Shown one piece after another: positions 17,176 through 64,000 of a stretch of 64,000 bases of DNA. Each line of letters opens with the position of its first letter. Within the stretch, counting starts at the first letter, position 1. This DNA comes from a virus. The stretch covers positions 12,652 to 76,651 of IMG/VR virus record IMGVR_UViG_3300033149_006574. One strand, written 5' to 3'. The position numbers were made by a program, and so were the translations under genes. The notes beneath the pieces were generated by a model that was not told the DNA's origin, did not search any database, and saw only the letters and a program-made list of their open reading frames with translations.

Positions 17176-17646
17176 ATGAATCAGGGTTGCTCTTGTGAAA
17201 AATGTGTAGCTGCTTGCTGGCATACCCCAGGTTGGTTTGGCTCGATTGAAGAAATTGAAGGGGCTGCTAGACTGATGGGAATGCCGGTAAAAGATTTTGT
17301 TAAAGAATTTCTTATCCAGGAATATTGGGTAGGGGAAGAAGAAGATATTATTGTTCCTTCTCCACGCAGAAATTTTGATAGATATAAAGGACCAAAAGAA
17401 ACAGATTATTCAGAGATTTTTAAAGAAGAAAATGGCAAAGGCTTTGTTCTAGCTAGTTGGGGACATAATCTCATAAGAGGATATGCTTGCATTTTTTTAG
17501 ATGAGAATAATAGGTGTTTAATCCATCAGAGTAAGCCCAGAGAATGCAGAGAATGTTTTGTATGTAAGGGCCAATTTATTGATAGAAGCGATTTATTACC
17601 ATATTGGAAAGAACATCAGGATTGGATAGGGGAAATGGAGAGATGA
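17176..17646 (+). CDS. YkgJ/CxxCxxCC-type Zn- or Fe-S-binding protein
   Basis: CEKCVAAC...CIFLDENNRCLIHQSKPREC. Confidence 0.75.
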   Translation: MNQGCSCEKCVAACWHTPGWFGSIEEIEGAARLMGMPVKDFVKEFLIQEYWVGEEEDIIVPSPRRNFDRYKGPKETDYSEIFKEENGKGFVLASWGHNLIRGYACIFLDENNRCLIHQSKPRECRECFVCKGQFIDRSDLLPYWKEHQDWIGEMER

Positions 17647-47688: not shown

Positions 47689-47975
47689 TATGGTATCTCA
47701 TACTCTACGTGAAATTGTGCTGGCTTTGAACCTACTGCCGAAACATAGATATACAAACTTTTATACGCTGGAATATCGGTTACAATAAACGATGACGCAC
47801 CTGCACGTGTAGTTCCTGCTGTTATCGTTCCAGTCAAAACATCGGTTGAAGTGCTTGCACCCCAAGGGTCGCCATAATCAGCGTAATAAAAATCAAGTGT
47901 CCAGTTAGAACCGCCCGATTGCGTAATTCCATTTCTTGGTGCGTAGAGGTTCAAAATAATCGGAAGTATGTCCAC
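47688..47975 (-). CDS. Probable detached C-terminal domain of the upstream fibre-like protein
   Basis: Overlaps upstream ORF by 70 nt in another frame; no SD; same S/T-rich composition. Confidence 0.45.
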   Translation of the reverse strand: MDILPIILNLYAPRNGITQSGGSNWTLDFYYADYGDPWGASTSTDVLTGTITAGTTRAGASSFIVTDIPAYKSLYIYVSAVGSKPAQFHVEYEIP

Positions 47976-49320: not shown

Positions 49321-49357
49321 ATTATCCCCCTTAAAATCGCAAAAGAAAATTGATATA

Positions 49358-50509
49358 TTATCCAATAATGCGAACCTCACTGCCAATTAATAGCTCTAGT
49401 TGCCCTATGTCAATATTGTAGCCAATTTTAATAATCCCGCTTTCGTAAGGCCTCGTATCCGTTGTCCACTTTCGTAAATTAGTTATTGATGCAGAACTGG
49501 CAATATAATTTTTATCTTCATAATCAACCTTGAAAAGGTGATTGTGAACGAAATAATCCTCTCTCGCTGAGGCAGAGGAGTTACCACGAATGAACACATC
49601 CCCTAAATAGAACTCATCTCCATCATTGGGAATTGTCGCATATACATATCCGCTATAATAGCACCAGCACCATCTTTGATTTATTGCATCATCTGTGTTA
49701 ATCTTTAATAATGTCGGAACCGAAGTACCAGGTAAAATACTATACGGTTTTGCAACAACAACCGGGGAAGATAATGTTGAAATTCTAATCCAATATTTTT
49801 CTTCTCCGTTCACTGTTGTTTTTATCCAATCATCTATTGAATCCCAATATATTCGTCCACCAGAAACAAAATTATCTGTATCATCGGTTACTGTGCTTAC
49901 AGGGGTTATGCCTGAAGCAATTTCTGTCCATATTGGTGTGGCCCCTTCCTGATAATACTCAAATTTTAATCCATAACCTGACCCAAGAGTATGAAAATCA
50001 AATGTGATAGAAGTAAATTTATTATCAGAGCCGATATAAAGATAATCTTCGGTAGTCCTTAAAATCTCTTGCTCAGTTTCACCCTCTTGAGACATATCGC
50101 TTGTAATATCGTTATAACAGGGCGTAGATAACGAACCTTGGTAATCAAATATTTTATCAAACGCTGTAATCGTTTCATTATCAGCTTCACCTCTATATGT
50201 AAGCAATTTATCATCAAAATACATCTGATTTTTTGTATTATGAGCAAAATCAGATAAGGGATATTTCCAGATAGAATAACCACCTTCCGCCCTTAGATGC
50301 GTCCAATTAGCAAATGTTGAAGAAGTATGTCCAAGCTCAACATTACGCTTGAATTTTCTGTTTAAGGATAAATCTGAATAAAGCTGGTCTATTTCATTTA
50401 AATCAAATGCTTTTTGCTCAATTCGGCCTTCTAATTCCTGGTCGTTATCAGAAAGCCTGTCTTGAGCATCTTTTAATGACTGATTAGGTTGTGTTCGCTT
50501 TATTGTCAT
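49358..50509 (-). CDS. Tail/baseplate structural protein
   Basis: DYLYIG..KF..I.F...G; DDT..F..G.I.W...DW....VNG..KYWIRI; tail context. Confidence 0.7.
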   Translation of the reverse strand: MTIKRTQPNQSLKDAQDRLSDNDQELEGRIEQKAFDLNEIDQLYSDLSLNRKFKRNVELGHTSSTFANWTHLRAEGGYSIWKYPLSDFAHNTKNQMYFDDKLLTYRGEADNETITAFDKIFDYQGSLSTPCYNDITSDMSQEGETEQEILRTTEDYLYIGSDNKFTSITFDFHTLGSGYGLKFEYYQEGATPIWTEIASGITPVSTVTDDTDNFVSGGRIYWDSIDDWIKTTVNGEEKYWIRISTLSSPVVVAKPYSILPGTSVPTLLKINTDDAINQRWCWCYYSGYVYATIPNDGDEFYLGDVFIRGNSSASAREDYFVHNHLFKVDYEDKNYIASSASITNLRKWTTDTRPYESGIIKIGYNIDIGQLELLIGSEVRIIG

Positions 50510-50518
50510 GATATTCCT

Positions 50519-52831
50519 TTATACAAATTGTATCTCTCGCCATCCAGGCGTTGCCTGCAAGGCATCATATATATAGAATTTTTTATTAACTGTATCTCGC
50601 CAAAACATACCATCTAATGGTGTAGCCACCTGAGTGTCCGAACATTCCATTCGCATTTTTAGCCCTTGATAACCATTAAAATCAATATCTCCCCCCAATA
50701 TTGGATGATAAAGAGAAATCTTTAGGTTATCCTCTTCTGAAATATGTATTGTTGCACCATCCAATTCTTCAGAATTTATGTAAGGATTTTTGTTAAAATT
50801 ACAATTCTTAATATAAAAATATCCATTTCCTGATCTAACAGCTAAAAATATTTTATCATCTGATTCGAAAGTGCTTGATATTATATTCCAAGTGATAGAA
50901 TGATCATAAAATAATTCGGCAATTAAACAATAATTAGTACCTTTTACAATTGAATCTTGTATAATATTTGTATTATACCATGCTTTAATTTCACCACGGA
51001 TATTAGAAGATCTAATAATAAAGCTTCGAGCCTCTAATGAACCATCCGTCCCTATCCAATCATTCGATAAAAAATTAAAAATATTTAATATTACATTATT
51101 AATATTAGCAAAAAAGATTTTAGGTTTAAGGCTAGTAGGATTTATACCTACCACGGGATCTTCAAAACCAAAGTCCAAATCCGAAAAATAACAAGTAGTT
51201 ATATTAGAAGCATTAAATTGAAGAAAAATAGGACGATAAGTACTCATTGCTATTTGTATATCGGGGGAATAAATTTTTAAAGTAAAACTTGATAATTCAC
51301 AATTTTCATTACAAACAAAAATACCATCCCGATTTTCATTTGGAAAATCAATTCTTCGATAAGTAGTAGCAAAATCTGGAATAAAATTAATAATAGTATT
51401 TTGTAGACCAGCGCCAATAACCTTAACATTAGCTCTAATTTCTATAGGGTCATAGGGATTAAAAGGGCCATCTTCCCCGCAAATCCAATCATATTCCCCT
51501 GGTTGAATTCTTAAAATATGTTCTCCAGAAGTTTCATTATTAATATAATTAATAGCTTCTCTTAAATCATTAAAATCGCCCTCCTCTTTAGCTAAGATGG
51601 TAACATTTTTTGTTTGCTTAATCTTTCTTTGTCCTATAAATCTATCTTGAATTCCATTTTCATCTATAAAAACGGATTCTCCTATTTGTATATACCCTCC
51701 ATCGCCAACCTTTAAAGTACCCCCATCACCCAATTCAATAATCCCACCATTTGGTACATAAATATTTTGTCCTAATATTCCACCTAATGCATGAACAAAA
51801 CCTTTTAAAGTAACAGAAAATGCTTTAATGTTCCCCAATTTATCTATTTTAAAACCAGAAACACCTTCTTCATAATTAGCAGATTGGATTCCATCCTCAT
51901 TAATTAAAATGCCCCCAAATTCACCGCTTTCTGCATTAATCTCTCCTCTAACTTTAGCATTCTCCAGCTCTACTTCTCCTGTATCCTTTATCCTGAATCC
52001 TTTTACTCCCTCTTCAAAATTTATGCTTTCAATACTATGCCCGGTTATTTTTATATTTCCAATAGTAGCACCATCTTTACGATAGGAAGCAAGTAATTGT
52101 CCATTAGCATCATAAAAGAATGTTCCGTCTCTCGTAAATTTCGCCAGAGTGCTATTATCAGCACTTTTAATTCTTATCTCCTTAGAATCCATTTCAAGTG
52201 TTCCCTGAGTGTTTTTAATCTGTAATCCTTCAGAAAGTGTAATATCTCCTACAAGAGATGAAGCAAGAACCTGACGAAGGGTATTGCGAAAATAACTAAT
52301 TGTCTCGTCGTCTATGCGTCTATCTATGTCATAAAGCGCATCGCTGGATAACACTATGTATCCATTATTAGATGATTCGTCTTTATCCTGAGTAATCTTT
52401 TGAGTAGTAGTTGAAGGAAGGACAATCTTGCCAAGTTCTAGATAATCAGTTCTTTTAGTAGCACTCTGAACAATATCAAGATTAGAATTAAGATAAAGCC
52501 TTACAACTTTGGGTAAATCCGCCATTTCTATCTGAACACTTTTAGTATCGTCAGTTTCAATACATTTACCATTAAGAATCGCTTTTCCAGGCATTACATT
52601 GACTATCGCACTGGGAGGATCCGTTGCTTTTATCTCAAAACCTTCGGCTATACGATTGCCAACGAGCAATGCCATAGCTTGCGAAAGATTGTTAATACTA
52701 TCAGATATAGATTTAGATGTAACCTCAGCACCAAAATTGCCGGAAGGAACTGTAGCAATGCCAGCCCTTGGTTGCAATGCCTTTTCTATTTCTTGCTTAA
52801 TTAAGATGTAAAGATTTTTGCTTGTTTTCAC
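50519..52831 (-). CDS. Tail fibre/spike with beta-helix (pectin-lyase-like) domain
   Basis: Repeated S.N(F/Y)EEGV.GF.I; GDF.DL.EAI...IQPGEY...IGAG...T beta-helix entry. Confidence 0.7.
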   Translation of the reverse strand: MKTSKNLYILIKQEIEKALQPRAGIATVPSGNFGAEVTSKSISDSINNLSQAMALLVGNRIAEGFEIKATDPPSAIVNVMPGKAILNGKCIETDDTKSVQIEMADLPKVVRLYLNSNLDIVQSATKRTDYLELGKIVLPSTTTQKITQDKDESSNNGYIVLSSDALYDIDRRIDDETISYFRNTLRQVLASSLVGDITLSEGLQIKNTQGTLEMDSKEIRIKSADNSTLAKFTRDGTFFYDANGQLLASYRKDGATIGNIKITGHSIESINFEEGVKGFRIKDTGEVELENAKVRGEINAESGEFGGILINEDGIQSANYEEGVSGFKIDKLGNIKAFSVTLKGFVHALGGILGQNIYVPNGGIIELGDGGTLKVGDGGYIQIGESVFIDENGIQDRFIGQRKIKQTKNVTILAKEEGDFNDLREAINYINNETSGEHILRIQPGEYDWICGEDGPFNPYDPIEIRANVKVIGAGLQNTIINFIPDFATTYRRIDFPNENRDGIFVCNENCELSSFTLKIYSPDIQIAMSTYRPIFLQFNASNITTCYFSDLDFGFEDPVVGINPTSLKPKIFFANINNVILNIFNFLSNDWIGTDGSLEARSFIIRSSNIRGEIKAWYNTNIIQDSIVKGTNYCLIAELFYDHSITWNIISSTFESDDKIFLAVRSGNGYFYIKNCNFNKNPYINSEELDGATIHISEEDNLKISLYHPILGGDIDFNGYQGLKMRMECSDTQVATPLDGMFWRDTVNKKFYIYDALQATPGWREIQFV

Positions 52832-53337
52832 CCTAAGTTAGCCCCCCATTTATATTTATAACAATTTACGGGGCAATGCCCGATAGATGTATAACTAATA
52901 CCTGCAGAGTAAGAATTAGTGCTTCGTAAACATCCATCACCCAATAGTTCTCCATCTATGAATTGCTTTGCTTCATCAGATAAATTACAATGACTACCCC
53001 GTCTTATATGATTGGTTTCACTTCTAAGACGAATTGGAATGTGAAATCGTCTTATCCATTTTAATACAATAGGATGAAGTGTATTATATAATTTCGCTAT
53101 CTGACACATGCTTAATTTTTGATTTAGGTATAGGTCTTCTAGTTGCCTTTTTGTTATTTTAAATTGCATTCTTTTTTTGCCACTATTCCTAGTTCTAATT
53201 GGAATATAATGTTTTTCTAGCCAATAATATATTGTATTTGCACTTACATTATATGGTTTTGCAATTTCTTGGCAACTCAATTTTCGATTTAAATACCTAT
53301 CTTCTAACCAATTTTTATCCTTATATAATTGTTTCAT
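52828..53337 (-). pseudogene. Truncated LAGLIDADG homing endonuclease with tandem HTH repeats
   Basis: Two L.D.YLN.KLS..(E/Q)IAK repeats, FIDGELLGDGCL, then ends about 30 aa later. Confidence 0.65.
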
Positions 53338-53379: not shown

Positions 53380-56300
53380 CTATCCATAATATGCAAGAAT
53401 AAGATTCGCCACATTAGAATTGTCAATTGATATTGATTCTATGAAATATAATCTATCTATTCCATTAATATCGTCTTTTATCCAAACAGTGTCTCCAATT
53501 TGAAGGTCGGGTCTTGCAAAACAAGTTGCACGGACCCGAGTAGTCCCTTTATAATATTCTTTCAATAAATCTTTTGCCCTTTTATTAATTCTTGTTTGGG
53601 TATTCAAATACTCATTTATATTATTATCTTTATAGAGAACATCTCCTACTTTTGATAAAATTCCCCTGGAATCATATAAATGTGTATCATCTTCATCTTC
53701 CTCATTCTCGCATAATTTAGCCTCGCCTACCAGTATTGTATTTTCATAGGCAGAAAATTCGGTTATTGAAACTGGCCAGATATCAACTCCGCCTATAGTC
53801 TTCTTTTCTGCTTTATTGAGAACTATGCGTAAATATCTTGCTTTAAATTCTTCGCCTAAATCTTCAAAATTTTTAGTTTCTCCTGCCCCAATTGAAAAAT
53901 TATTGGCTTCTTTACAAATAGGATACCAATCTACATTATTCAGACTATATTCTATTGTATAAGTATTTGAAAAGTCATAATTCCTATCTCCAATTTTATA
54001 AAATCCTGTTGAAAAATCAATAATATCTATGTCTTTCTCTTCTTGTAAATCAAATGAAATTAATACTAATGAACCCGGATCCGTCTTATACCCGATTTGT
54101 AATTGCGTCAGCGGATTTTTGTCATGCAATTTATATCTATCTTCTTCTTGCGAATGTTCTGTGCCAGCATCTATCATATAAGCATTCAGGCTAGCCGAAA
54201 CAGATGTAATCTTTGATCCTACTATCATATCGGCACTATGAAAATATCGAAGGTTTGTCTGTAAATTAATTTGGTTAAATATTATTGTTCTTGGTGCCAA
54301 AAATCCAAAATGATATCTCCATTTATAATGCGAATAGCTATCGCCACTTCCTGAGTAAAGAAATTTTTCACCATAAACTTTTGTATTCATTGCTAAGTGC
54401 TGGTATGTTCCATTAAGGTAAAATGTGATAGTAATTATCGCAGGGTTAGGGGGATAGTTTTGATAAGGAATATTATTCGCAATTATATTACCATAAATAA
54501 GCCACCAGCCATCATCAGATAATAACATTGGCCAGGCAGGATGAGACCAAATGTCCATCAAAGAACTATTTGCGGGAGCATTGGGAGTTGTATATGTACA
54601 ACCTAAATATTTTACCCTACCATCTGGATTTTTAATTTCTGATTGCTGATAATATTTAGACCCACATAAAGACATTATATGATAAATCCATTCGTTTTTA
54701 CGAATTAAATTATCCTTTACTGTAATTTTTATTGGATTATTCGAATCAATTTTAATATTTCCGCTTGCTGTAATTTTAAAATCAGGATATACCCTTTCAA
54801 TTTCTTGTGTAGCCCAAAGGGGATAATATGCATAATAACCCTGTCCTACATCATCAAATTCTAATTTCAAATCACTAACATCAATTTGAGCATATATATC
54901 TTGTCCATCATAAAAAACAATTGGATAATCCTTATCAATATTGAGGGGGAATGTATATCCAATAAAAGCATCGTCTTTTTTAATTCTCCCCCATCCTGTT
55001 GCATTTTTTGTTTCATCAAACATTAATGAAGTCCCATTTACAGTAATTATTGGCTTTTGAGGATAATAAAGAAGAGTCTTATTATAAAGATAGGATCTTA
55101 ATTTGACAGACGGTATACCAGGCCAGGAATCATTATCGGTTCCATAAGGATATAAAGTAATCGTGGGGTTATCAACCAAAAAATAGCTTCCATCATAAGT
55201 AACGCCCGGATCCTGCATAACATTATGAGGATTATTACTCTTACCAAATACCTTAACGTGAGTATATATATCCTCATCCAAATTATACGATAGGCTTCCA
55301 ATAAGATTTAATTTATAATCAGCACCTCGATTAGAATCTAGTGGATTATAAATTTTCTGACTTAAATATCGCCCCCAGAGTTTATTATCACCTAAAGTCA
55401 TAAGCACATAATTGGGTGGAAGATATTGTTTCACGCTATTTATGGCCTCAAAACGATTCGCTATTTTATCAGCAGATAACCTTATAAATGGTATGGTAAT
55501 GCCCGAATATTGTAAGGTATTAAATAAGTAATTTTTAGTACAAATTACATTAGAATCGGAAGCAATCTCATTCTCTAATATTATATACCCCGCCTCTTCA
55601 TTTATTTCTGTAATACTTCCGCCACCGGCGGGAATACTAAAATCTCCCTCTGTTAAAGTATCTAAAATATTAGAGAAGCTAAGCCACCATTTTTTTGTAT
55701 TAGTAATATCTCTTATTAAGCTATCTGTACTTTTGCCAATTGCGTCGTTTAATGTTGTTTCAAAATCGCTATCACTATAAATAGTATTACCATATCCATC
55801 TGGTTCAAGGAGTATTTGCTTAATAACATCTTCTGCCCTCAGGCCAGTCGAATAATAGGAAAAAACCGCCCAAATCTCAAAATCATCTGTGCAAATAGGG
55901 GCTGGTAATATCAATTGTCCTGTTTCATAATTTATTTCAAAAGAATCCTGAATAGTCTTCTCCCCTGAGGTTTTTTGCACAATGCGAATTATTGGGGCAG
56001 GCCATGGGGCGATATTGTTTACTGGCACAAAATATGGAGTGGCACAAGTAAGCCAGTAACCAAAATCAAAAAATTGTGCAAAGTTAGATGGCAATGTATC
56101 CGGATGAGGGCTAGACTCTACTAATGGTACGCCTAAATTATAGCTTTCCCCTGGCATATCATGAACATCTACCTTCGTTCCCTCAATAAGACCTAAATCA
56201 ACATCTGTTTCTTCAGCCTTAACCAGAAAATCTAAGCAAGTAACTTCTATTATATCTTCAGCGCTTTTTGAAGATGGATTAACCTGCCTTACAACCCAAT

Positions 56301-56583
56301 TTGTTTCAAATGTTTCCTTAGACCCATCGTCAAGGATAATAGAACGCTGAACTTTAACATTATCTCCTTGTTTTACCTCTTTTGCCCCACCAACAGAGTA
56401 AAGATGTTCTCTATTTGCAATTTGCAGAACCAGTGATGCCACGCCAAAAGATTTATCAATAGAATAAGAGTAAGAAGAAGCATCGGGGATAACTGTCCCA
56501 TTTATTAAAACATTGGTTTCAATTACAATATTTTTCGAATTTATCTTATTCTCGGCTGATGTTGATAGATGTTTAAGACTCAT
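53380..56583 (-). CDS. Large tail-tip/baseplate hub protein with discoidin (F5/8)-like insert
   Basis: YTIEYS..NVDW...KARYLRI; C-terminal RPDLQIGDTV...YFIESI. Confidence 0.75.
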   Translation of the reverse strand: MSLKHLSTSAENKINSKNIVIETNVLINGTVIPDASSYSYSIDKSFGVASLVLQIANREHLYSVGGAKEVKQGDNVKVQRSIILDDGSKETFETNWVVRQVNPSSKSAEDIIEVTCLDFLVKAEETDVDLGLIEGTKVDVHDMPGESYNLGVPLVESSPHPDTLPSNFAQFFDFGYWLTCATPYFVPVNNIAPWPAPIIRIVQKTSGEKTIQDSFEINYETGQLILPAPICTDDFEIWAVFSYYSTGLRAEDVIKQILLEPDGYGNTIYSDSDFETTLNDAIGKSTDSLIRDITNTKKWWLSFSNILDTLTEGDFSIPAGGGSITEINEEAGYIILENEIASDSNVICTKNYLFNTLQYSGITIPFIRLSADKIANRFEAINSVKQYLPPNYVLMTLGDNKLWGRYLSQKIYNPLDSNRGADYKLNLIGSLSYNLDEDIYTHVKVFGKSNNPHNVMQDPGVTYDGSYFLVDNPTITLYPYGTDNDSWPGIPSVKLRSYLYNKTLLYYPQKPIITVNGTSLMFDETKNATGWGRIKKDDAFIGYTFPLNIDKDYPIVFYDGQDIYAQIDVSDLKLEFDDVGQGYYAYYPLWATQEIERVYPDFKITASGNIKIDSNNPIKITVKDNLIRKNEWIYHIMSLCGSKYYQQSEIKNPDGRVKYLGCTYTTPNAPANSSLMDIWSHPAWPMLLSDDGWWLIYGNIIANNIPYQNYPPNPAIITITFYLNGTYQHLAMNTKVYGEKFLYSGSGDSYSHYKWRYHFGFLAPRTIIFNQINLQTNLRYFHSADMIVGSKITSVSASLNAYMIDAGTEHSQEEDRYKLHDKNPLTQLQIGYKTDPGSLVLISFDLQEEKDIDIIDFSTGFYKIGDRNYDFSNTYTIEYSLNNVDWYPICKEANNFSIGAGETKNFEDLGEEFKARYLRIVLNKAEKKTIGGVDIWPVSITEFSAYENTILVGEAKLCENEEDEDDTHLYDSRGILSKVGDVLYKDNNINEYLNTQTRINKRAKDLLKEYYKGTTRVRATCFARPDLQIGDTVWIKDDINGIDRLYFIESISIDNSNVANLILAYYG

Positions 56584-57424
56584 AGGCGTATACCTTCTTT
56601 AAATCTTCCTCAAGATTTTTGTTCCAAATTTTCGGATCTTCCCCAAATTCCTTTAATTTATCCTCAAAGATTTTTTTATTATTATAATAATATTCATTCC
56701 ATTTGTTCCCTGATAAAATAATCCTGGTCGAATGGTAATTATGAAAAACAAAGCTTTTCAAAGTAACAAGAGATTTATATCCATTTTTTTCAATCATAAA
56801 TAAATCTAGCGTATCTTCGAAATTAGAGCCTTCAAAATCTTCATTATAAGGTAAATAAGCTTCTTTTCTTTTTAAAAATGGATGTTGTAAGCCTCTTGAT
56901 ATTTTATCCCGATATGTTTTCTGTGCAATGTCAGTTATTTCAGATTGTATGCTCTCAAAACCTTTATTCAAAATTTCCTCATCTCTTAAAGCATATTTTG
57001 GGCTACCCCAAAAACCCTTAGGAGTAATCAAGCCACTACAAATCATTCCTATTTTTTTCTCCTTATCCCTTTCCATTATTTCAACAAGAGGACTGAGCCA
57101 CACTTTCGGAAAAACCATATCATTATGAATTTCAATTATATAATCACAATCATAATGTTTTAAAAGATGGGAATTGGCAATATTTCTTGCTTTTGCTATC
57201 CCCTTATTCTCTGGAAGAGAAATAATATCAACTTCATTCTTAATATTATTTTTAATCCATCTTATAGATTCATCGGTAGATGCATTATCAACAATAACCA
57301 ATTTATAATTATATGATACTAAATCAGAGTTCAGTAGGCTCATAAGAGCAAGTCGAGTAATTCCAAACATAAATGGATATTCTTTTAAATTACAAAAAAT
57401 AAGCGAAATTCCTATTTTCAACAA
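56573..57424 (-). CDS. GT2 glycosyltransferase
   Basis: IVDNASTDES, ENKGIAKARN, HND, FED. Confidence 0.9.
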   Translation of the reverse strand: MLKIGISLIFCNLKEYPFMFGITRLALMSLLNSDLVSYNYKLVIVDNASTDESIRWIKNNIKNEVDIISLPENKGIAKARNIANSHLLKHYDCDYIIEIHNDMVFPKVWLSPLVEIMERDKEKKIGMICSGLITPKGFWGSPKYALRDEEILNKGFESIQSEITDIAQKTYRDKISRGLQHPFLKRKEAYLPYNEDFEGSNFEDTLDLFMIEKNGYKSLVTLKSFVFHNYHSTRIILSGNKWNEYYYNNKKIFEDKLKEFGEDPKIWNKNLEEDLKKVYAYES

Positions 57425-57429
57425 GCCTC

Positions 57430-58452
57430 CTATTTGTTTGATAAATATTTTCTACAATTAGCGGGAATAAAATCATTTATGTTTTTATCTGGCAAATATA
57501 ATGAAAAATAATCAGATAAAATCGTTCCTGCTCGATGTAGATAGGTATGTTTTTGATATACTTCTAATTGCCCCCATCTGGCAATATTTTGCCTTGCATC
57601 ATCATTGCTAAGATAATAATCAATTAATTGTATAGTTTCTTCCGGCGATTGGCTCCATTCCATGTGTCTTCCTTTGACAAATAACTTTTCAAATGCCTTA
57701 GTGTAATAACCTAAAGAAAATGTCCTGCATGCCATAATTTCGTAGGTCCTCATAGAAGTCTGGGTTTCTGAGCTCCATATTTGATTAACATTTAACGCAA
57801 TTTTTGCAGATGAATATGCTGATGGTAATTCTTCATAAGCAAGAGGTCCCTTAATTATTTCAGGGTATTTAAGCAAATTATATGGTCTATTAGCATCGTC
57901 CCACCAAATACCCCACACTTGAATTTTATATCCTTTCTCCAAAATCGGATTTAATAATATATTATATGTCTTTTCATATCTTCGGTCATAATTTGAACCC
58001 ACTAGTATTATATCCGTTTGATATTCTGGCTTTATATGCCATTTTCTATGAAATGAGGGCAAACAGCCAAAAAGTAAAACATCGCATGGTTTCCCTAATT
58101 GTTGATAATGTGGAATAAGTTCTTTACAAGTAGTAAACACATAGTCAACATAAGGAACAAACCATCTATCAGATTGTGATGTGTTTATAGGATCCTCTAT
58201 TGCCCAGTAGAATATCTTTAATTTATGTCCAAAATCTTTCTTTATTGCCGGAACAAGTGAAGAGTTAAAGCCAGGGAAGCCCTCAAAAAATACAATATTA
58301 GGCTCCCAATTGTTTATAACTTTATAAAGGACCTCTGCTTGATTATTATATTGCCATAATCCCATTACCATAACGTCTTGTTTTAATTTAACAAAACCTT
58401 CTGCCAAACCATATTTTATAAGTGGACAGTTATTAAGGAAAAGAATCTTAAT
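57430..58452 (-). CDS. CgeB/DUF3880-type GT-B glycosyltransferase; probable ATT start
   Basis: WAIEDP, D.VFTT, YSSAKIALN, RTYEIMAC, HTYLHRA; AGGAGGTGA 5' of ATT giving MKILFLNN. Confidence 0.85.
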   Translation of the reverse strand: MKILFLNNCPLIKYGLAEGFVKLKQDVMVMGLWQYNNQAEVLYKVINNWEPNIVFFEGFPGFNSSLVPAIKKDFGHKLKIFYWAIEDPINTSQSDRWFVPYVDYVFTTCKELIPHYQQLGKPCDVLLFGCLPSFHRKWHIKPEYQTDIILVGSNYDRRYEKTYNILLNPILEKGYKIQVWGIWWDDANRPYNLLKYPEIIKGPLAYEELPSAYSSAKIALNVNQIWSSETQTSMRTYEIMACRTFSLGYYTKAFEKLFVKGRHMEWSQSPEETIQLIDYYLSNDDARQNIARWGQLEVYQKHTYLHRAGTILSDYFSLYLPDKNINDFIPANCRKYLSNK

Positions 58453-58468
58453 GATAAATCACCTCCTT

Positions 58469-59182
58469 TCACTTAAGACACACCGGACACTTACTATGCC
58501 GATAATACTCCTCTATATCTTCATATTGAGTATTAATTGGATATTCATTTATAAAGTTATGGTTGGGTGCATGACCATAGTCTATCCCTACCTTATTCAT
58601 ATGCAATGCTTCATTTGCTAATGCTGGAGCCCATACTCCCATACTAATCAGTGCGATATCAAAATCATTATTTCTCATTTCATTACGAATTATATCGTAT
58701 TCATACATATTAGAAATATCATATTTAATAGAAGGAACAAAATAATTAACACCTAACGGTTTTAAAAATTTTTCTGCCCATTCTTTCATAGGAAAGCCTA
58801 AAAGCAAAAGTTTATGTTTCATTAAAACTTCTTTTACAAATTTTAATCTGGTACATAAAAATAAATTAAGCCAAGCATAACAATATCTATCAGGAGGATA
58901 TTTTAATCCTTGAATCTCAAAGGATCTTTTGGTCCAATCATCTATAACAAAGCAACCAATTATACTTGCTTCTCGAATAGCATTCGCAAGCATTAATCTA
59001 GCCATTTGCATGCTTGAACCTTCAATTTTATTTTCCCCACGATAGTCCCAAATATTACGCTTTAATATCTCACCACTTAAAACAATATTTTCTCCGTCAC
59101 CAATTCTAACCAATGAATATCCCTTCTTCTTGTCTAATGCCTCAATAATCTCATCAATAATAATATTAATATTTATTTCCAT
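58469..59182 (-). CDS. GT-D fold (DUF1792-like) glycosyltransferase
   Basis: SLVRIGDGE, FDIALISMG, GIDYGH. Confidence 0.75.
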   Translation of the reverse strand: MEININIIIDEIIEALDKKKGYSLVRIGDGENIVLSGEILKRNIWDYRGENKIEGSSMQMARLMLANAIREASIIGCFVIDDWTKRSFEIQGLKYPPDRYCYAWLNLFLCTRLKFVKEVLMKHKLLLLGFPMKEWAEKFLKPLGVNYFVPSIKYDISNMYEYDIIRNEMRNNDFDIALISMGVWAPALANEALHMNKVGIDYGHAPNHNFINEYPINTQYEDIEEYYRHSKCPVCLK

Positions 59183-60138
59183 TTATTAAATAGTTTAATA
59201 TAAGCCTCAATCATTTTATTCAATGAAAAATTAGATTTAATTCTTTCCCTTGCATTAAACTTTAATTGATTCAATTGTTCTTTGGGTAAAGAAACGACTT
59301 CTTTTAACTTGGATAAAAATGAGTTCATATCCATATTTTCAGAAAAAAATCCATTTTCTCCAGCCACTATTTTAGAACCAATCGTAGGAGTACTGACAGG
59401 AATATTCCCGTAAGACATGGCCTCCGCTTGAGATAATCCAAATGATTCAGATAAAGAATTAGATAAAATAATATCTAAATTTCCCAGAATGTCCCCAAAT
59501 TTATCTTTAAAGCCATAATAACGAACCTTATTTTTTAAACCATATTCCAAAATTAAATCAAGAACATTGTCTTTTTCCTCCCCATCGCCAATTATTGAAA
59601 AATCTATGCCAGAAACTTCCTTTAACAAATTCTTAAAAATGATAATTAATTGTGGAACTCTTTTTATGCTATCAATCCTACCCAAATATCCCAGATGGAG
59701 TATATCTCCAACTGGCTTTATTGTTACATCTGGAATTTCTATACCAGGATAGATAATGCTTCTTTTATTCTCTGGAACAATAAAATAATTTAACAATTGG
59801 TCATTGTTATAAATATAATAATCACAATCTCTAAACTGCCCTATACAAAACTTGCTATGCAATGTTTCAACAACAGGGATATTTTTTTCTTTTGCTATTG
59901 CATAGCCAAATCCAGACGCATGAATATTTACTAAATCTATATCTTTAAAATTATTATTTTCCGCCCCATATCTAACCTCTACCCCGGCTTCAGAAAATAG
60001 AGATTCAAAATGCCCTCCGACTAAAGCAATAACAACGGATTGAATATCAGAATACGCAGATAAACCTTTAGCAAGATTAAAAACAAATTTTTCAACACCA
60101 CCAAAGCATAAAGAATTACAACATATTCCTACTTTCAT
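59173..60138 (-). CDS. GT4 glycosyltransferase
   Basis: GGVEKFV, YLGRIDSIKR, SESFGLSQAEAMSYG. Confidence 0.92.
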   Translation of the reverse strand: MKVGICCNSLCFGGVEKFVFNLAKGLSAYSDIQSVVIALVGGHFESLFSEAGVEVRYGAENNNFKDIDLVNIHASGFGYAIAKEKNIPVVETLHSKFCIGQFRDCDYYIYNNDQLLNYFIVPENKRSIIYPGIEIPDVTIKPVGDILHLGYLGRIDSIKRVPQLIIIFKNLLKEVSGIDFSIIGDGEEKDNVLDLILEYGLKNKVRYYGFKDKFGDILGNLDIILSNSLSESFGLSQAEAMSYGNIPVSTPTIGSKIVAGENGFFSENMDMNSFLSKLKEVVSLPKEQLNQLKFNARERIKSNFSLNKMIEAYIKLFNKWK

Positions 60139-61181
60139 GTTAGAGAATTTCTATCTTTATTCCAAAAATGGATTGGATTTATTATTTTATCTCCATTCTT
60201 TATAGGCTGTATATTATTTTCTCCAAAATTTTCAAGATAGGTAGGATAAAGACCATCACAAATTTCTCTATAAGCACAATTTTTACATTTTTCTATAAAA
60301 ATATTATTACCTGCACATAAAGTTCTGGTAAGATAATTTGCTAACCTTTCTTCTAAGTTTTCTCCATAAAAAGATTTAACCTTCTCGGCATAATCGTTTC
60401 TTTTGCTTAATGGAATATGAGCCTGCCATGCCATATTCCATTCATAGGGATCATACTGCCATTGCAGGGCATTTGAAACATATTTTTCATAACCTTTCAT
60501 AAAACATAAGGGGATATATCTTACTGTTATTCTATATCTATCAGCAACCTTATCAATTATACGTTTCATAACAATGGCTATATCTTTATAATCTATCTGC
60601 AATTCTTTAGCCTCTTTTCTCAAATTCCAATCAGAGGTTGGATATGGATTAAAACAAATAAAATTTGCCATTCTTGGTTTTAAATCTAAAAGATACCCTG
60701 TGGCATATTCGTACAAGTCATTTATATTAAGATTGGTTACTACGGAATTAGTCCTAAAAGAGAAATTATGTTTTTTCAAGACTTCAATACTCTGACTTGT
60801 TAATTTCCAGCCATTAGGGACACCCAAACAACGATTTTGCGTTTCACCTATACCATGCAAACTTAATAAAATATCTTTTACATCACTTGCTATTGACTTC
60901 TCAACCCCACCAGGGCTTATACCGGAAGTAATCATACAAGAATCAATGCCAATTTGATTTGAATATTCAATAAGCTCTTCTAATTGTGGATATAAGGCCG
61001 GCTCCCCTCCGCTCATGTCATATATCTTTAAATCATAATTTTCTTTCATATCTTTAACCTGAGATTTAACCCATTCAATATCATAATCCTGCTGTGGCTC
61101 AAAGCGAAAATAGCAACCGGGGCATTTGCAAGGACATTTCTTGGTTGGGTAAATAACACCCCGTTTTGTAATATTAGCCAT
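60135..61181 (-). CDS. Radical SAM enzyme with C-terminal SPASM/twitch-like cysteines
   Basis: CPCKCPGC (CxxxCxxC), SGGEP, RYIPLC, CKNC...CDG. Confidence 0.9.
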   Translation of the reverse strand: MANITKRGVIYPTKKCPCKCPGCYFRFEPQQDYDIEWVKSQVKDMKENYDLKIYDMSGGEPALYPQLEELIEYSNQIGIDSCMITSGISPGGVEKSIASDVKDILLSLHGIGETQNRCLGVPNGWKLTSQSIEVLKKHNFSFRTNSVVTNLNINDLYEYATGYLLDLKPRMANFICFNPYPTSDWNLRKEAKELQIDYKDIAIVMKRIIDKVADRYRITVRYIPLCFMKGYEKYVSNALQWQYDPYEWNMAWQAHIPLSKRNDYAEKVKSFYGENLEERLANYLTRTLCAGNNIFIEKCKNCAYREICDGLYPTYLENFGENNIQPIKNGDKIINPIHFWNKDRNSLT

Positions 61182-61785
61182 CTACTCTCCTAAATGCAAC
61201 AACATTCTTATTTTGTTGTTCGATTTTCTGAAATTTAACATTTTTTTCAAAAAATGAATCAATAATTTGTCTAACATTTGGATGCCTTAAATTATTATAA
61301 TCATGACAAAAACAGATGCCACCAACAACAATTTTCGGTATCCAATTATTTAAATCAAATAATAAATCTTCGCTCTTATGAGAACCATCTATGTGCAAAA
61401 AAGAAATAGGTATCTCAAATCGAGAAAAATCCCTCGAAGTGCCAATGCAAATCCTTATTTCATTATCTAACTTATTTTTATAGATATTATTTAACAAAAT
61501 TTTACCCATTTGCTCCCCAATTGCTAAATCAATATGCATCTCTTCAAATTCAGGATTACCAAACAATGGTTCAACTATATATAATTTCTTTTTCTTTTCC
61601 GATTCTTTAATAATATTCCCAAGTAATATTGCAGTCCTGCCATAAAATGAACCTATTTCAACAAAGTCTCCTTCTTTATTAAGTGAATCCTTAGCAAGAT
61701 GATACATAGCTTCAGCTTCTTGTCTTTCATAAAAACCAAAAATGCTATTAACTATATTTTCCCAGATTTTCTCAAAAGTTTGCAT
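61174..61785 (-). CDS. Class I SAM methyltransferase (Methyltransf_24 type)
   Basis: VEIGSFYGRT, FLHIDGSH, GG...HDY. Confidence 0.88.
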   Translation of the reverse strand: MQTFEKIWENIVNSIFGFYERQEAEAMYHLAKDSLNKEGDFVEIGSFYGRTAILLGNIIKESEKKKKLYIVEPLFGNPEFEEMHIDLAIGEQMGKILLNNIYKNKLDNEIRICIGTSRDFSRFEIPISFLHIDGSHKSEDLLFDLNNWIPKIVVGGICFCHDYNNLRHPNVRQIIDSFFEKNVKFQKIEQQNKNVVAFRRVDG

Positions 61786-62446
61786 ATATGTCCCTCAACT
61801 TATCCTGCCATTTATTCCTGAGTAAGGCATTATCTTTTTGTCCCAGGGAAGCTGATTCTGGAAGCCATGAAGTAACTGATTCATGAAAAACAAAGGAAGA
61901 AGAATATATTAATTTATATCCTGCTTGCCAACATCTGATTGAGTAATCTAAGTCAAAAGCAAATTTAGTAAATTGTTCATCCAATAAGCCAATCCTATCT
62001 ATTAATTCTCTTTTAACATACATACAAGCTGAGCAACCCCAATGCGCAAATCTTGGCTCTTTTATCGCATCTCTACTCATTCTAATACCAAAATTTTCTA
62101 TATCAAAAAAACCGCCAGAATTTTCTATAGCTTCTTCTCTTATTGTTGGAGCAACAACAATTCCTATTTTAGAATCAGAATAGGCCAAATTATACAAAAT
62201 ACTCAGCCAGCCCTGTACAAGTCTTATATCATCATCCAATAATAATATATCGCCATCGGTTATTTTAATACCACGATTATGCTCTCTGGGATGGTTGAAA
62301 TCAGGAGAGTTGTTATTGTCTAATACAATAATCTCATATGGGGAATGGACTGTTAATTGTTTAATATCCCTAAAAAGCAAATTCGCTCTATCGGCGGAAA
62401 CATCTCTTGTTGAACAAATAATTGATATTTTCATAGATTTTACCAA
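61772..62446 (-). CDS. GT2 glycosyltransferase
   Basis: YEIIVLDN, NRGI, LLDDD, IGLLDEQF, DYSIR...AGYK; likely start ATG 62434. Confidence 0.88.
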   Translation of the reverse strand: MVKSMKISIICSTRDVSADRANLLFRDIKQLTVHSPYEIIVLDNNNSPDFNHPREHNRGIKITDGDILLLDDDIRLVQGWLSILYNLAYSDSKIGIVVAPTIREEAIENSGGFFDIENFGIRMSRDAIKEPRFAHWGCSACMYVKRELIDRIGLLDEQFTKFAFDLDYSIRCWQAGYKLIYSSSFVFHESVTSWLPESASLGQKDNALLRNKWQDKLRDIYANF

Positions 62447-62970
62447 CGCGCTCGATAGCCCCTATTGTCAAGGTGAAGCGCATTGGGATGAGATAATTGC
62501 TTGCCAAGACCTCCGTCTTGCCACAGTGGCTCAGCAAATTCTATAATAATACCCTGTGGGACTAATTCACCATTTTTCAGCCTAACTACGATATCTGTCG
62601 CACATTTTCTATGCTGAGTGGTATATCCCAATTCTGGGCCAGATACCTCTAACGCACGCTCAGGGCAATTATAACCACGAGTGATTATAATTTGAACTTC
62701 TTGCTTATAATATTTAGATAATATCCATCGAAGTTTTTCCAATCGATTTATTTGATCCACCCAACGCTCCCAATATTTTAAATTTATTGTATGACCACAA
62801 TGAGGACACGGCCCTAAATTTTTTTTACAGGCTGTTTCCAATATACTAAAATGCTCGCTCCACCGTAATTGTGAAATAGTTATTAATTTATTTTTCTTCT
62901 TCATTATTCCCATTTTCGATATCCCTCTCAGCTTCCTGAATATGTTCATTAATGTAGTCCAAAAAGCCAT
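62440..62970 (-). CDS. Peptidase M15A-family endolysin-like protein
   Basis: HFS..E.AC, LEKLR, ITRGY.C, QH...ATDI, LHLDNR...ARW. Confidence 0.8.
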   Translation of the reverse strand: MAFWTTLMNIFRKLRGISKMGIMKKKNKLITISQLRWSEHFSILETACKKNLGPCPHCGHTINLKYWERWVDQINRLEKLRWILSKYYKQEVQIIITRGYNCPERALEVSGPELGYTTQHRKCATDIVVRLKNGELVPQGIIIEFAEPLWQDGGLGKQLSHPNALHLDNRGYRARW

Positions 62971-63039
62971 CTATATCTTTCCTCACTTGAATAACCATTA
63001 TTTTCATTTCCTGTAAAACATGCCTCAAAGCTTCTTTTT

Positions 63040-63276
63040 TCATTTGTAGGATAGAGAATAATAATCTTTTTTACATTTTTTGCAGAAAATAATCCACTCA
63101 CCGAACTTGGAATTTCTGGCAACGAGAGGCTCATCGCAAATAGGGCAAGTAGAAAAATTACCGGCAAGGTGAGAAATTTCCTCTGCAATATCCGCCCTCT
63201 TTGCCCGCCTGGGCTTAAATTTGCCCGTTTTAGGCACTTTATTTTTAATTTCCGTATTTCTATCCGTTTTCCTCAT
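63040..63276 (-). CDS. Zn-ribbon protein
   Basis: CPICDEPLVARNSKFG...FCKKC; SD GGGGG. Confidence 0.65.
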   Translation of the reverse strand: MRKTDRNTEIKNKVPKTGKFKPRRAKRADIAEEISHLAGNFSTCPICDEPLVARNSKFGEWIIFCKKCKKDYYSLSYK

Positions 63277-63349: not shown

Positions 63350-63775
63350 TCACCAATTACTAGTTCCGTCAACAGGAAATCTATCAATAATTATCTGATA
63401 TCCGTAATATTGTTCTTTTCCAGTCTGTAGAAATTTAAGTGTAGCAGAAATTATATAGCCCTGGAAGGTTTTAATTCCCGTTGGGGTTACAAAATCGGTG
63501 TGAGTTGTTATCTTAAGTCCTATATGATTTTTATAATAATTTTGAATCTTATTAATAAGTTCTTCATTAATACTTAAAGGGGAGATATTTAGAGTAACAT
63601 TATTCTTTTTAATAGAAGGACGAATAATTCTTGCAAATGATCCGTCAACTAACTCAATTTTATTAACTACGGGTGCTTCTTCTAAAACTGGTTCTTCAAC
63701 CAATTCTCCCAAATTACCATCTGAAACCCAAGTAGGTGTCGCTAAGCTTGTATCCCATTTTTCAACATACCACAT
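63350..63775 (-). CDS. Distal-tail-like structural protein
   Basis: Immediately downstream of the tape-measure C-terminus. Confidence 0.55.
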   Translation of the reverse strand: MWYVEKWDTSLATPTWVSDGNLGELVEEPVLEEAPVVNKIELVDGSFARIIRPSIKKNNVTLNISPLSINEELINKIQNYYKNHIGLKITTHTDFVTPTGIKTFQGYIISATLKFLQTGKEQYYGYQIIIDRFPVDGTSNW

Positions 63776-64000
63776 TTAAACCCCCTGATAGGCTCTTTTA
63801 GCTCTTATTACCCACTCTTGTTCAATAGTCCGAATAATATCTTCGGCCTGTTTTCCATCATTTATATTTATAGTCATAGAGCCAACAGTAACCTCAGGTC
63901 TTGCCCCCGCTGGTGTAACTATTTCCTGTCCATGCAAAATTGCAGGAACTTCTTGAGATGGCAAGCCAGGAACTATACCACCACCTTGAAATCGAGGAAG
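63776..64000 (-). CDS. Tape measure protein, C-terminal end (runs off right edge)
   Basis: PRFQGGGIVPG...EVPAILHGQEIV...MTININ motif typical of TMP C-termini. Confidence 0.75.
   Translation of the reverse strand, partial: LPRFQGGGIVPGLPSQEVPAILHGQEIVTPAGARPEVTVGSMTININDGKQAEDIIRTIEQEWVIRAKRAYQGV

Follow-up and report, generated by a model that had tools for sequence, protein, structure and literature searches.

Seven tightly packed open reading frames (ORFs), here named g1 to g7, occupy positions 56573-62446 on the minus strand of the window, a 64,000-nt stretch analysed from the 76,651-bp (76.7-kb) genome of an uncultured tailed phage. This genome has a low GC content of about 33% and carries a 114-bp terminal repeat (DTR) at its ends. 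The cassette encodes five glycosyltransferases (GTs), a methyltransferase and a radical SAM enzyme (rSAM), and each ORF lies at the coordinates of the original prediction and falls, by profile matches and motifs, in the family given there. The close, mostly overlapping spacing described there is also borne out, with overlaps of 4-14 nt at all junctions except those between g5 and g6 (a 61-nt gap) and between g6 and g7 (a 5-nt gap). Around the cassette, no promoter or terminator signal rises above chance.

The first gene, g1 (61772-62446, minus strand), specifies a compact GT-A glycosyltransferase, also labelled GT2a, which probably starts at the ATG at 62434. Its match to PF13632 (26.5 bits) lies below the cut-off of 27, and its homologue in phage L005 passes PF00535. 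A DDD motif at residues 71-73 is invariant in homologues, and the AF2 model (pLDDT 80.8) shows a GT-A fold. The product of g2 (61174-61785, minus strand) is a SAM-dependent methyltransferase (Methyltransf_24, PF13578, 60.4 bits; TylF weaker, 21.2 bits) with the motifs VEIGSFYG and HIDGSH. Judged from its sequence, it is probably a TylF-like sugar O-methyltransferase, and its homologue adjoins a radical SAM gene in L004. The radical SAM enzyme, g3 (60135-61181, minus strand; PF04055, 46.1 bits), combines CxxxCxxC at C16/C20/C23 with a C-terminal auxiliary-cluster region of four invariant Cys residues (C226, C299, C302 and C308). The remaining minus-strand genes encode g4 (59173-60138), a retaining-type GT4 of the GT-B class (Glycos_transf_1, PF00534, 77.8 bits) with E-x7-E at 231-239; g5 (58469-59182), a GT-D-fold enzyme (PF22882, 103.3 bits; NF040628, 83.1 bits against a cut-off of 75) with the motif RIGDGE at residues 26-31; g6 (57430-58407), a CgeB-type GT-B (Glyco_trans_1_2, PF13524, 96 bits) for which a PDB sequence search gave no match; and g7 (56573-57424), a GT2 enzyme termed GT2b (Glycos_transf_2, PF00535, 50.2 bits) bearing the nucleotide-binding motif VDNASTDES.

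The absence of membrane anchors noted originally was confirmed for all seven enzymes by a scan that detected no hydrophobic 19-mer with a Kyte-Doolittle score >1.4. The claim that flippase, polymerase and nucleotide-sugar genes are missing now extends from the window to the whole 76,651-bp genome, which yielded no matches to Epimerase, NTP_transferase, Bac_transf, Glycos_transf_4, Polysacc_synt or Wzy_C and has no lipid-carrier genes. The enzyme families, their solubility and the missing carrier and export genes support the proposed late-operon, cytoplasmic, multi-enzyme set for glycan assembly.

The tape-measure gene ends ~1.3 kb upstream of the cassette; its 3' end (63776-64000, minus strand; phrog_1533 tape measure, E 8.2e-39) forms an open frame across the record start. 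Beginning near genome position 3903 and reading down to 1, this gene wraps over the 114-bp terminal repeat, crosses the ends of the record and terminates at window position 63776. The distal-tail (Dit) position is taken next by a protein of 141 aa (63350-63775, minus strand), with A-T-P at residue 12 and no match in Pfam, PHROG or PDB; in L118, L119 and L077, homologues of 129-157 aa come after the tape measure. On the far side of the cassette, a 1067-aa protein in the tail-tip/hub position (53380-56583, minus strand) contains an F5/8 type C domain (PF00754, 28.8 bits) and matches the tail protein phrog_1887 (E 4.7e-4). Its gene overlaps g7 by 11 nt, and homologues directly follow the Dit-position gene in L119 (E 5.7e-127) and L055. 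Upstream of g1 lie a 78-aa basic, zinc-ribbon-like ORF (63040-63276, minus strand), read from its CxxC...CxxC pattern and preceded by a Shine-Dalgarno-like site, and a 176-aa putative cell-wall hydrolase (62440-62970, minus strand), which may start at the ATG at residue 20. A 79-aa TTG ORF (62949-63188) is an overlapping alternative to the former. The hydrolase resembles Peptidase_M15_3 in the Atlas search (feature score 0.95, 200 shared features; structural TM 0.71 to M15_3 clusters), and Pfam and PDB sequence searches gave no match. The tail context claimed originally is confirmed in part: the tape-measure gene is identified by its match, while the labels 'distal tail' and 'hub' derive from position and synteny in relatives and the M15 assignment from the Atlas search.

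A synteny survey of related phages identifies the block as an insertion. The gene order in L055/L077 and L119 proceeds from tape measure to small Dit-position protein to large tail-tip protein without the cassette, so that the cassette, the M15-like peptidase gene and the zinc-ribbon ORF together constitute a 6.8-kb accessory insertion. Distant capsid relatives carry GT genes in their head modules: L005 has GT4-GT4-GT2a-rSAM behind its capsid gene, with three short ORFs in between, and L078 and L079 have proteins that combine two to three GT2 domains with TPR.

The best explanation, unproven and given about an even chance, is that the cassette forms a late-expressed cytoplasmic set for O-glycosylation of the phage's own virion proteins, with Thr of exposed Ala-Thr-Pro (A-T-P) loops as the probable site. 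Its bases include the enzyme identities and their solubility, the position of the inserted block within the tail module, the pairing of g1 with g3 and the lack of nucleotide-sugar, lipid-carrier, flippase and polymerase genes. Another is the motif itself, which occurs 11 times in late proteins against 1.21 expected (p 7e-8), the top of all tripeptides, and 0 times in early proteins. Under a dipeptide-aware expectation it also ranks first (11 versus 2.31, p 3.1e-5), at a value that fails correction for 4,953 tripeptides. A-S-P has a count of 0, and Ala is the only residue enriched before T-P. Four sites, in the capsid, adaptor, tail-tube and Dit-position proteins, lie in indels or substitutions (loops) that are not in L119 and L077 and are kept in L118, which is 84% identical. 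L123 also has the capsid site, and the tail-tube protein of L120 has A-T-P in the same region, a few residues off. Such placement in loop insertions suggests that the phage may sugar-coat its own particle. Against this reading, the portal A-T-P is ancestral and also occurs in cassette-less relatives. Cassette and motif were compared in one lineage carrying the cassette and two lacking it, L118, L123 and L120 being represented by contigs too short to score. One A-T-P protein, at 2685-3404, is possibly not a virion component.

The fold of g1 is closest to polypeptide GalNAc-transferases (ppGalNAc-T, CAZy GT27). Its best structural matches, also top in Foldseek, are ppGalNAc-T1 (Z 19.4, rmsd 3.1, with 220 of 224 residues aligned to the catalytic domain) and TgGalNAc-T3 (Z 18.8), a narrow lead given that majastridin and chondroitin polymerase are only 1-2 Z units behind. 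A profile match to GalNAc-T1 (E 4.7e-6) spans residues 7-224. The ppGalNAc-T enzymes initiate O-glycans at Thr or Ser, often beside Pro, a preference that fits the A-T-P site. Despite the shared fold and profile match, identity is 14-18%, and g1 has neither the ricin-type lectin domain nor the membrane anchor of these enzymes. It is also coupled to a radical SAM enzyme, an arrangement known for no GT27 member.

This coupling extends beyond the phage. In one well-supported clade, every one of the 11 members has a g1-type GT and a radical SAM enzyme either fused or adjacent, with fusion in several bacteria, and the wider family includes the polypeptides GT2-GT2-GT4-rSAM, rSAM-GT2-TPR-GT-B, TPR-rSAM-GT2-TPR and MT-rSAM. 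Neighbours of homologues in MAGs are transferase-rich, with 13 GT4 and 8 GT2 among 58. Read from these gene and domain arrangements, g1 and g3 act as an evolutionarily fixed pair and the radical SAM enzyme is integral to the glycan machinery, in line with the radical-SAM-tailored glycan of the original prediction. The TPR fusions point to a protein partner, not to its identity.

In its AF2 model (pLDDT 90.6), g3 matches known folds over its core only. By sequence, the best PDB match is the cytosylglucuronate decarboxylase BlsE (1.8e-21), and by fold the best matches are viperin-like enzymes; both act on nucleoside- or nucleotide-type substrates. They share with g3 a partial TIM-barrel radical SAM core and CxxxCxxC, about 225 of 348 residues aligning at a TMq of about 0.52, but lack a counterpart of its C-terminal ~120 residues with the four invariant Cys. 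GT-A partnership or fusion is not a feature of theirs, whereas g3 is paired with g1. The core is as close to the RiPP maturases SuiB and SkfB as to viperin, which favours a target other than the virion shell, such as a non-structural phage or host protein, a small peptide or a metabolite. In mycofactocin-like and RiPP pathways, radical SAM, GT2 and methyltransferase enzymes act on a peptide-derived core. The weak NCBIfam matches of g1, g3 and g7 to mycofactocin MftF and MftC point the same way, but every one is far below cut-off. The zinc-ribbon ORF in the same inserted block and the partner implied by the TPR fusions also favour such a target; against it, no precursor-peptide-like gene common to L004 or L005 was found, five GTs are many for small-molecule tailoring, and the structural-module location recurs in L005, L078 and L079. 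A target of this kind is considered quite unlikely.

It is highly improbable that phage DNA is the substrate, hypermodified with a methylated glycan tailored by the radical SAM enzyme so as to evade restriction, even though g2 has a match (2e-11) to phrog_2675, which carries the annotation of a DNA methyltransferase. Distant rSAM relatives in Campylobacter phages do occur amid nucleotide-metabolism genes, but form a separate clade without a GT2a partner. Some phages are known to encode GTs that assemble glycans on DNA (Pyle et al. 2024, as cited in PMC12619734). The present cassette, however, lies within the tail module, away from replication genes, and no thymidylate-synthase-like hydroxymethylase was found in the genome. 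Fusion partners are TPR and GT domains rather than DNA-binding domains, and MAG homologues lie within GT-rich clusters.

A further alternative arises from g4, whose PDB matches include BshA (3.2e-13) and TarM (2.4e-11), and from TarP, which is among the fold matches of g1. At the cytoplasmic face, the cassette could modify a polymer of the host cell envelope (such as teichoic acid, S-layer glycan or a capsule precursor), with host exporters carrying the product out and superinfection exclusion or lysogenic conversion as the outcome. The wall-teichoic-acid transferases TarM and TarP are soluble, so missing membrane anchors are compatible with host-polymer modification. The phage also encodes a tyrosine recombinase, overlooked originally, which makes lysogeny possible and keeps this route a rival. 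Bacterial GT2a-rSAM homologues within GT-rich chromosomal clusters and a weak match of g7 to the GtrB-like phrog_841 (2.1e-5) favour it too, but g7 lacks C-terminal membrane helices and no GtrA/GtrB/GtrC-type membrane proteins were found. Conversion genes are usually separate morons. TarP/TarM-like prophage teichoic-acid GTs, which are soluble, phage-borne or phage-related, cytoplasmic and dependent on UDP-GlcNAc, are single-gene examples, whereas this seven-gene cassette sits inside the tail operon, overlaps the tail-tip gene and lacks its own promoter or terminator signal. Envelope modification, which would leave the late-protein A-T-P enrichment unexplained, is judged unlikely. The virion target proposed in the original prediction is upheld in part, favoured by A-T-P in late proteins and GTs in relatives' head modules and weakened by the TarM/TarP-like route and the recombinase.

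Under virion O-glycosylation, host NDP-sugars would feed the cassette enzymes. The first sugar would be attached to protein by g1, as its modelled likeness to ppGalNAc-T suggests, and g3 would tailor this sugar or its linkage. The GT4, GT-D, CgeB-like and GT2b enzymes would extend the chain, and g2 would cap it. The resulting coat would change surface properties of the particle such as adhesion, stability or recognition.

Serine-rich-repeat and SD-repeat adhesins of Gram-positive cocci are likewise O-glycosylated stepwise in the cytoplasm, with no lipid carrier, by soluble enzymes of the GT4, GT-D and GT-A types (GtfA/B, the GT-D enzyme dGT1/GtfC, SdgA/SdgB). Known GT-D enzymes lengthen the O-glycans of serine-rich adhesins; g5 is of this fold, and g4 has weak NCBIfam matches to SdgA, SdgB and GtfA, far below equivalog cut-offs. 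The adhesin acceptors are, however, long Ser-rich repeats with accessory Sec export, whereas the phage has neither such repeats nor export genes. In mycobacteriophages, phage GTs glycosylate the virion: soluble GTs, sometimes with methyltransferases, modify the phage's own capsid and tail-tube subunits with host sugar nucleotides (Freeman et al. 2023, Cell Host Microbe, as cited in PMC12619734 and PMC13313380). Phage-encoded soluble GTs and a methyltransferase are the common ground. Mycobacteriophage glycans are carried by C-terminal extensions of the capsid and tail-tube subunits. No Ser/Thr-rich C-terminal extensions were found on these proteins here, which counts against virion glycosylation, and internal A-T-P loops are the candidate sites instead. 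The present system further differs in having seven enzymes, among them a GT-D, a CgeB-type GT and an obligate pair of GT-A and radical SAM enzymes, in a genome of about 33% GC.

An eighth GT-A-like gene, also absent from the original prediction, lies outside the cassette at 42635-43336 on the plus strand. It is Anp1/GT62-like (PF03452, 49.9 bits against a cut-off of 28.8; weak PF00535 match) and closes the plus-strand block. Its product aligns with the GT2a set and has a DSD motif, marking it as a distant paralogue of g1.

Late, cytoplasmic O-glycosylation of virion proteins is the best explanation of the seven-gene cassette (g1-g7), a reading that stands at about an even chance. Under such a scheme, g1 and the radical SAM enzyme g3 would attach and tailor a sugar, with the other four glycosyltransferases (GTs) lengthening the chain and the methyltransferase supplying the cap. 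The data available on virion glycosylation are the position of the genes and the statistics of a candidate sequon. If the reading is true, a tail-operon glycan assembly line in a low-GC uncultured siphovirus would widen the range of tailed-phage self-glycosylation.

Pfam and NCBIfam searches confirmed the original prediction of seven closely spaced, mostly overlapping open reading frames (ORFs) for glycan-type enzymes on the minus strand at 56573-62446. The first gene, g1 (61772-62446), is GT2-like (PF13632, 26.5 bits against a cut-off of 27). It is followed by g2 (61174-61785), a Methyltransf_24 protein with a TylF match (PF13578, 60.4 bits, cut-off 26.3), by g3 (60135-61181), a Radical_SAM protein (PF04055, 46.1 bits, cut-off 29.5), and by g4 (59173-60138), a Glycos_transf_1 enzyme of the GT4 type (PF00534, 77.8 bits). 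The remaining members are the GT-D-like g5 (58469-59182; PF22882, 103.3 bits; NF040628, 83.1 against a cut-off of 75), the CgeB-type g6 (57430-58407; Glyco_trans_1_2, 96 bits) and g7 (56573-57424; Glycos_transf_2, PF00535, 50.2 bits, cut-off 23.3). Junctions within the cassette are overlaps of 4-14 nt, except for gaps of 61 nt and 5 nt, and g7 shares 11 nt with the gene that follows it. GC content does not point to recent transfer (0.31 for the cassette, 0.32-0.33 for its flanks), and promoter-like and terminator-like sites around it occur at chance level in a scan.

Sequence motifs support most of these assignments. The g2 protein is of the Methyltransf_24/TylF type, combining a class I SAM-binding motif (VEIGSFYG) with a PF13578 score above cut-off; the TylF model itself reaches 21.2 bits, just below its cut-off of 23. 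We infer that a sugar hydroxyl is its substrate. An N-terminal, metal-binding DxE is the catalytic motif of GT-D fold glycosyltransferases, and g5, with RIGDGE at residues 26-31, belongs to that fold (DUF1792 type). In g7 the nucleotide-binding motif VDNASTDES is present, the DxD position reads H-N-D with the first Asp not conserved, and the match to phrog_841 is weak. Sequence searches of the PDB with g5, g6 and g7 returned nothing useful. The PF00534 domain and an E-x7-E motif (ESFGLSQAE, 231-239) identify g4 as a retaining GT-B enzyme of GT4, and its PDB matches include BshA and TarM.

The resemblance to TarM/TarP lends some weight to an alternative in which soluble glycosyltransferases modify a polymer of the host envelope, which is fairly unlikely. 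It is also favoured by a tyrosine recombinase of about 280 aa (plus strand, 17604-18446; Phage_integrase, E 1.3e-38); this enzyme may mean that the phage is temperate, or it may be used for dimer resolution. The membrane proteins of GtrABC-type serotype conversion (the flippase GtrA, GtrB as a GT2 with C-terminal TM helices, and GtrC) have no counterpart in the cassette: across all seven proteins, no 19-mer exceeds a hydrophobicity of 1.4 on the Kyte-Doolittle scale, as expected from the earlier view that they carry no membrane anchors. The lack of flippase, polymerase and nucleotide-sugar synthesis genes noted earlier for the window holds for the whole genome, which has no match to Epimerase, NTP_transferase, Bac_transf, Glycos_transf_4, Polysacc_synt or Wzy_C.

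The position of the cassette is that of a late structural module. The window covers bases 12652-76651 of an IMG/VR virus record of 76,651 bp. The record carries a 114-bp direct terminal repeat, and the tape-measure gene (phrog_1533, E 8.2e-39) spans the record ends, with its stop at window position 63776. In transcription order, genes for the capsid, head-tail adaptor and protease lie just upstream of the tape-measure and cassette region. After the tape measure come a 141-aa gene in the distal-tail (Dit) position, a 78-aa zinc-ribbon-like ORF, a 176-aa protein and the seven enzymes. These are followed by two large proteins, one of 1067 aa in the tail-hub position that contains an F5/8 type C domain and one of 770 aa that has a tail-tip domain. 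The 176-aa protein resembles Peptidase_M15_3 by Atlas search only (score 0.95, TM 0.71). PDB sequence searches with the 141-aa, 176-aa and 1067-aa proteins gave nothing useful, and the N-terminal half of the 1067-aa protein likewise yielded nothing informative in the Atlas. The 78-aa ORF (minus strand, 63040-63276), flanked by the Dit-position gene and the gene for the M15-like peptidase, is basic, contains CxxC...CxxC and has a good ribosome-binding site. A 79-aa ORF with a TTG start was considered as a holin and rejected, the overlapping 78-aa ATG ORF with its ribosome-binding site being the likelier gene.

Placement in the tail module also argues against DNA as the substrate of the cassette, an alternative that is highly improbable. 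The genome has no PF00303 (Thymidylat_synt) match, and both elements of phage DNA glycosylation based on 5hmC or 5hmU, a thymidylate-synthase-like pyrimidine hydroxymethylase and placement of the GTs among DNA-metabolism genes, are lacking; a modification of DNA might take some other route. Action on some other protein or on a small molecule is quite improbable.

The synteny survey proposed earlier was carried out, and related loci without the cassette block were found. Capsid, connector, tail-tube, chaperone and tail-tip proteins are common to the phage and two relatives (L055/L077/L121, capsid E 3.4e-83; L119, tail-tip protein E 5.7e-127). In both, the tape measure leads directly into a homologue (129-157 aa) of the 141-aa gene, and the large tail-tip gene comes next. 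Since these relatives lack it, the accessory 6.8-kb block of zinc-ribbon ORF, M15-like peptidase and seven enzymes either entered this lineage by insertion or was lost from the others. The zinc-ribbon ORF is part of the inserted block and is absent from L119 and L077. Repeats flanking the block were not found, AT-rich chance matches aside. Sequence comparison sets the lineage well apart from cultured phages: a tblastn search with the probable large terminase (1255-2688, designated by position only) had no match in 50,697 phage records, and neither blastn with the cassette nor tblastn with g5 found a match among isolated phages. Scanning viral contigs with g3 or g5 as the single query protein likewise gave no match. 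The sequencing runs listed comprise one DNA run, labelled marine sediment metagenome, and no RNA run; its share is small (0.09), so the label is no evidence of habitat.

The enzyme proposed to start the glycan, g1, is a 224-aa GT-A protein whose DxD motif for metal and nucleotide-sugar binding (DDD, residues 71-73) does not vary among 11 homologues. Its structural model (pLDDT 80.8) matches many GT-A enzymes at Z 15-19, with polypeptide GalNAc-transferases (ppGalNAc-Ts) as the first Foldseek matches, and a profile built from g1 homologues has polypeptide GalNAc-transferase 1 as a match along the entire domain (E 4.7e-6). An exhaustive structural search ranked GalNAc-T1 (Z 19.4 over 220 residues) and TgGalNAc-T3 (18.8) ahead of majastridin (Z 18.1) and chondroitin polymerase (Z 17.5). 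Because the latter two are so close behind, the likeness to ppGalNAc-Ts is a lead and not an assignment. The catalytic fold is common to g1 and the GT27 enzymes, whereas the ricin-type lectin domain and type II membrane anchor of GT27 are absent: neither a lectin domain nor a hydrophobic segment was found in g1, which falls outside GT27. To judge from the model, g1 may work like a GT27 enzyme while standing outside that family.

Its partner g3 belongs to the radical SAM superfamily, with a CxxxCxxC motif at C16/C20/C23, of the type that binds the SAM-cleaving [4Fe-4S] cluster, a PF04055 score above cut-off and the partial TIM-barrel core fold. In a model of high confidence (pLDDT 90.6), the core alone aligns with known structures (viperin-like, SuiB, SkfB and BlsE, TMq about 0.52), and the fold search gave these generic core matches with no specific function. 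Four further invariant cysteines (226, 299, 302 and 308) lie in a C-terminal third unmatched by known folds; PF13186 (SPASM) has no match in g3, and the conserved residues suggest a putative auxiliary cluster. Weak NCBIfam matches to the heme-pathway models AhbC, AhbD and NirJ (E about 1e-10) fall far below their cut-offs, and automated virome pipelines could mislabel genes of the g3 type as auxiliary metabolic genes for heme synthesis.

Relatives of g3 are numerous: a word-indexed search found 21, and an exhaustive profile search (E <= 1e-30) found 1,182 representative clusters. A g1-type gene lies directly upstream of the radical SAM relative in only two of 51 viral loci, L004 and L005, which are the nearest. 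In sequences from metagenome-assembled genomes (MAGs), the two share a single fused ORF in L062 (578 aa), L064 (577 aa), L065 and probably L072 (scored as adjacent by the tree script) and are adjacent in L061, L063 and L066. This phage, L004, L005 and eight MAG sequences form one clade of the tree (SH-aLRT 95), and all 11 have a g1-type partner, that of L060 having been identified through profile comparison (96.9%). A separate clade lacking such a partner holds the remaining 50 sequences, those of Campylobacter CP220-like phages among them. This widespread phage clade (viral contigs L007-L054 and L003, which is gp163 of Campylobacter phage CP220) comprises about 50 loci that are 25-30% identical and have no GT2a gene; in CP220 the radical SAM gene neighbours thymidine kinase, phosphoesterase and helicase genes.

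The company kept by the pair is that of glycan synthesis. Among 58 MAG neighbours there are 13 GT4, eight GT2 and five CgeB-type genes. The composition of the phage cassette recurs in single polypeptides, since database proteins P0063, P0116, P0062 and P0047 join the same domains (GT2-GT2-GT4-rSAM, where rSAM is radical SAM; rSAM-GT2-TPR-CgeB-type; TPR-rSAM-GT2-TPR; methyltransferase-rSAM). The radical SAM enzyme is thus part of the glycan machinery. Some database proteins contain four to seven tandem partial copies of the radical SAM domain, such as P0028 (1318 aa). Literature searches for characterised GT-radical SAM fusions or a phage GT/radical-SAM virion system found nothing relevant and no paper on the pair. 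The g1/radical-SAM pair defines a large GT-coupled radical SAM family in bacteria and phages and poses a tractable enzymological question, that of whether its chemistry acts on the sugar or on the linkage.

Ala-Thr-Pro (A-T-P) is the candidate acceptor motif in the virion proteins. The 41 minus-strand (late) proteins contain it 11 times where composition predicts 1.21, the strongest excess of any tripeptide (p 7e-8), and it is absent from the 76 plus-strand proteins. With a dipeptide-aware expectation it still ranks first (11 against 2.31, p 3.1e-5), an excess that loses significance once 4,953 tripeptides are corrected for. The motif is specific: A-S-P has a count of zero, and Ala alone is enriched before T-P. 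The carriers are the portal, capsid, adaptor, tail-tube, 141-aa and 1067-aa proteins, the 770-aa protein (two sites), two tail-region proteins of 383 and 613 aa, and a 239-aa protein encoded upstream of the probable large terminase; the motif is missing from all seven enzymes.

Alignments place the capsid and adaptor sites within insertions of 3-4 residues, and the tail-tube and 141-aa sites within segments that L119 and L077 lack or have in another form. L118, at 84% identity, retains all four of these sites amid varying flanking residues; the capsid site recurs in L123, and the tail-tube protein of L120 has A-T-P a few residues away in the same region. The portal site, by contrast with these four, is ancestral. 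Enrichment was found neither in L055/L077 and L119 nor in the bacterial loci with the GT2a-rSAM pair, L004 or L005. By sequence, the pattern fits a putative sequon acquired together with the cassette, the co-occurrence being one lineage with the cassette against two without it, and the contigs L118, L120 and L123 being too short to show whether the cassette is present. A fuller proposal is that A-T-P is a genuine sequon evolved as small loop insertions in capsid, connector, tail tube and tail tip, on which a minimal ppGalNAc-T-like g1 would start a glycan, working as one obligate two-part enzyme with a hitherto unstudied radical SAM family (about 1,200 sequence clusters, frequently as fusions with GT2, GT4, TPR or methyltransferase domains), and the pair would form a new kind of sugar or sugar-protein linkage; as a joint claim this is tentative and rather doubtful. 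A short candidate sequon accompanied by its cassette is checkable without culturing the host.

To our knowledge, glycosylation of tailed-phage particles has been experimentally established only in actinobacteriophages. Mycobacteriophage virion glycosylation, with its sites in C-terminal extensions of the capsid and tail-tube subunits, is the closest established system (Freeman et al. 2023, as cited in PMC12619734 and PMC13313380). In this phage, Ser/Thr C-terminal extensions are absent from both the capsid protein (300 aa) and the tail-tube protein (233 aa). Against the system as those papers describe it, the candidate sites here are internal loops, a different set of enzymes is encoded and a GT-A/radical-SAM pair occurs.

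GT genes also lie within the head module of distant capsid relatives. L005 has three short ORFs after its capsid gene and then GT4-GT4-GT2a-rSAM, and L078 (8557-10848) and L079 (6858-9230) encode proteins of 763 and 790 aa, with two or three GT2 domains and TPR, just downstream of capsid/adaptor genes. A 990-aa CBM_4_9 protein lies beside the GT2 and TPR gene of L079. Just before the window, at genome positions 10271-12610, the head operon encodes a ligase/LigD-phosphoesterase-type protein, homologues of which adjoin the capsid gene of L005 (L005:4-4153), the contig that also carries the GT4-GT4-GT2a-rSAM genes.

Several other genes in the window deserve mention. Between two large tail-tip genes, a 169-aa HTH protein (minus strand, 52828-53337) has PHROG matches to HNH-endonuclease families and looks like an insertion of the homing-endonuclease type. 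Two late proteins on the minus strand, of 493 aa (47905-49386) and 613 aa (45847-47688), have hydrophobic N-terminal segments (19-residue Kyte-Doolittle values of 2.1-2.2), and segments so strongly hydrophobic are unusual for tail fibres; the 613-aa protein contains DUF2341 and LamG domains and one A-T-P. The last gene of the plus-strand block (42635-43336) encodes a 233-aa Anp1/GT62-like GT-A protein (PF03452, 49.9 bits) with a DSD motif, which is a distant paralogue of g1 and may be an eighth transferase of the same pathway.
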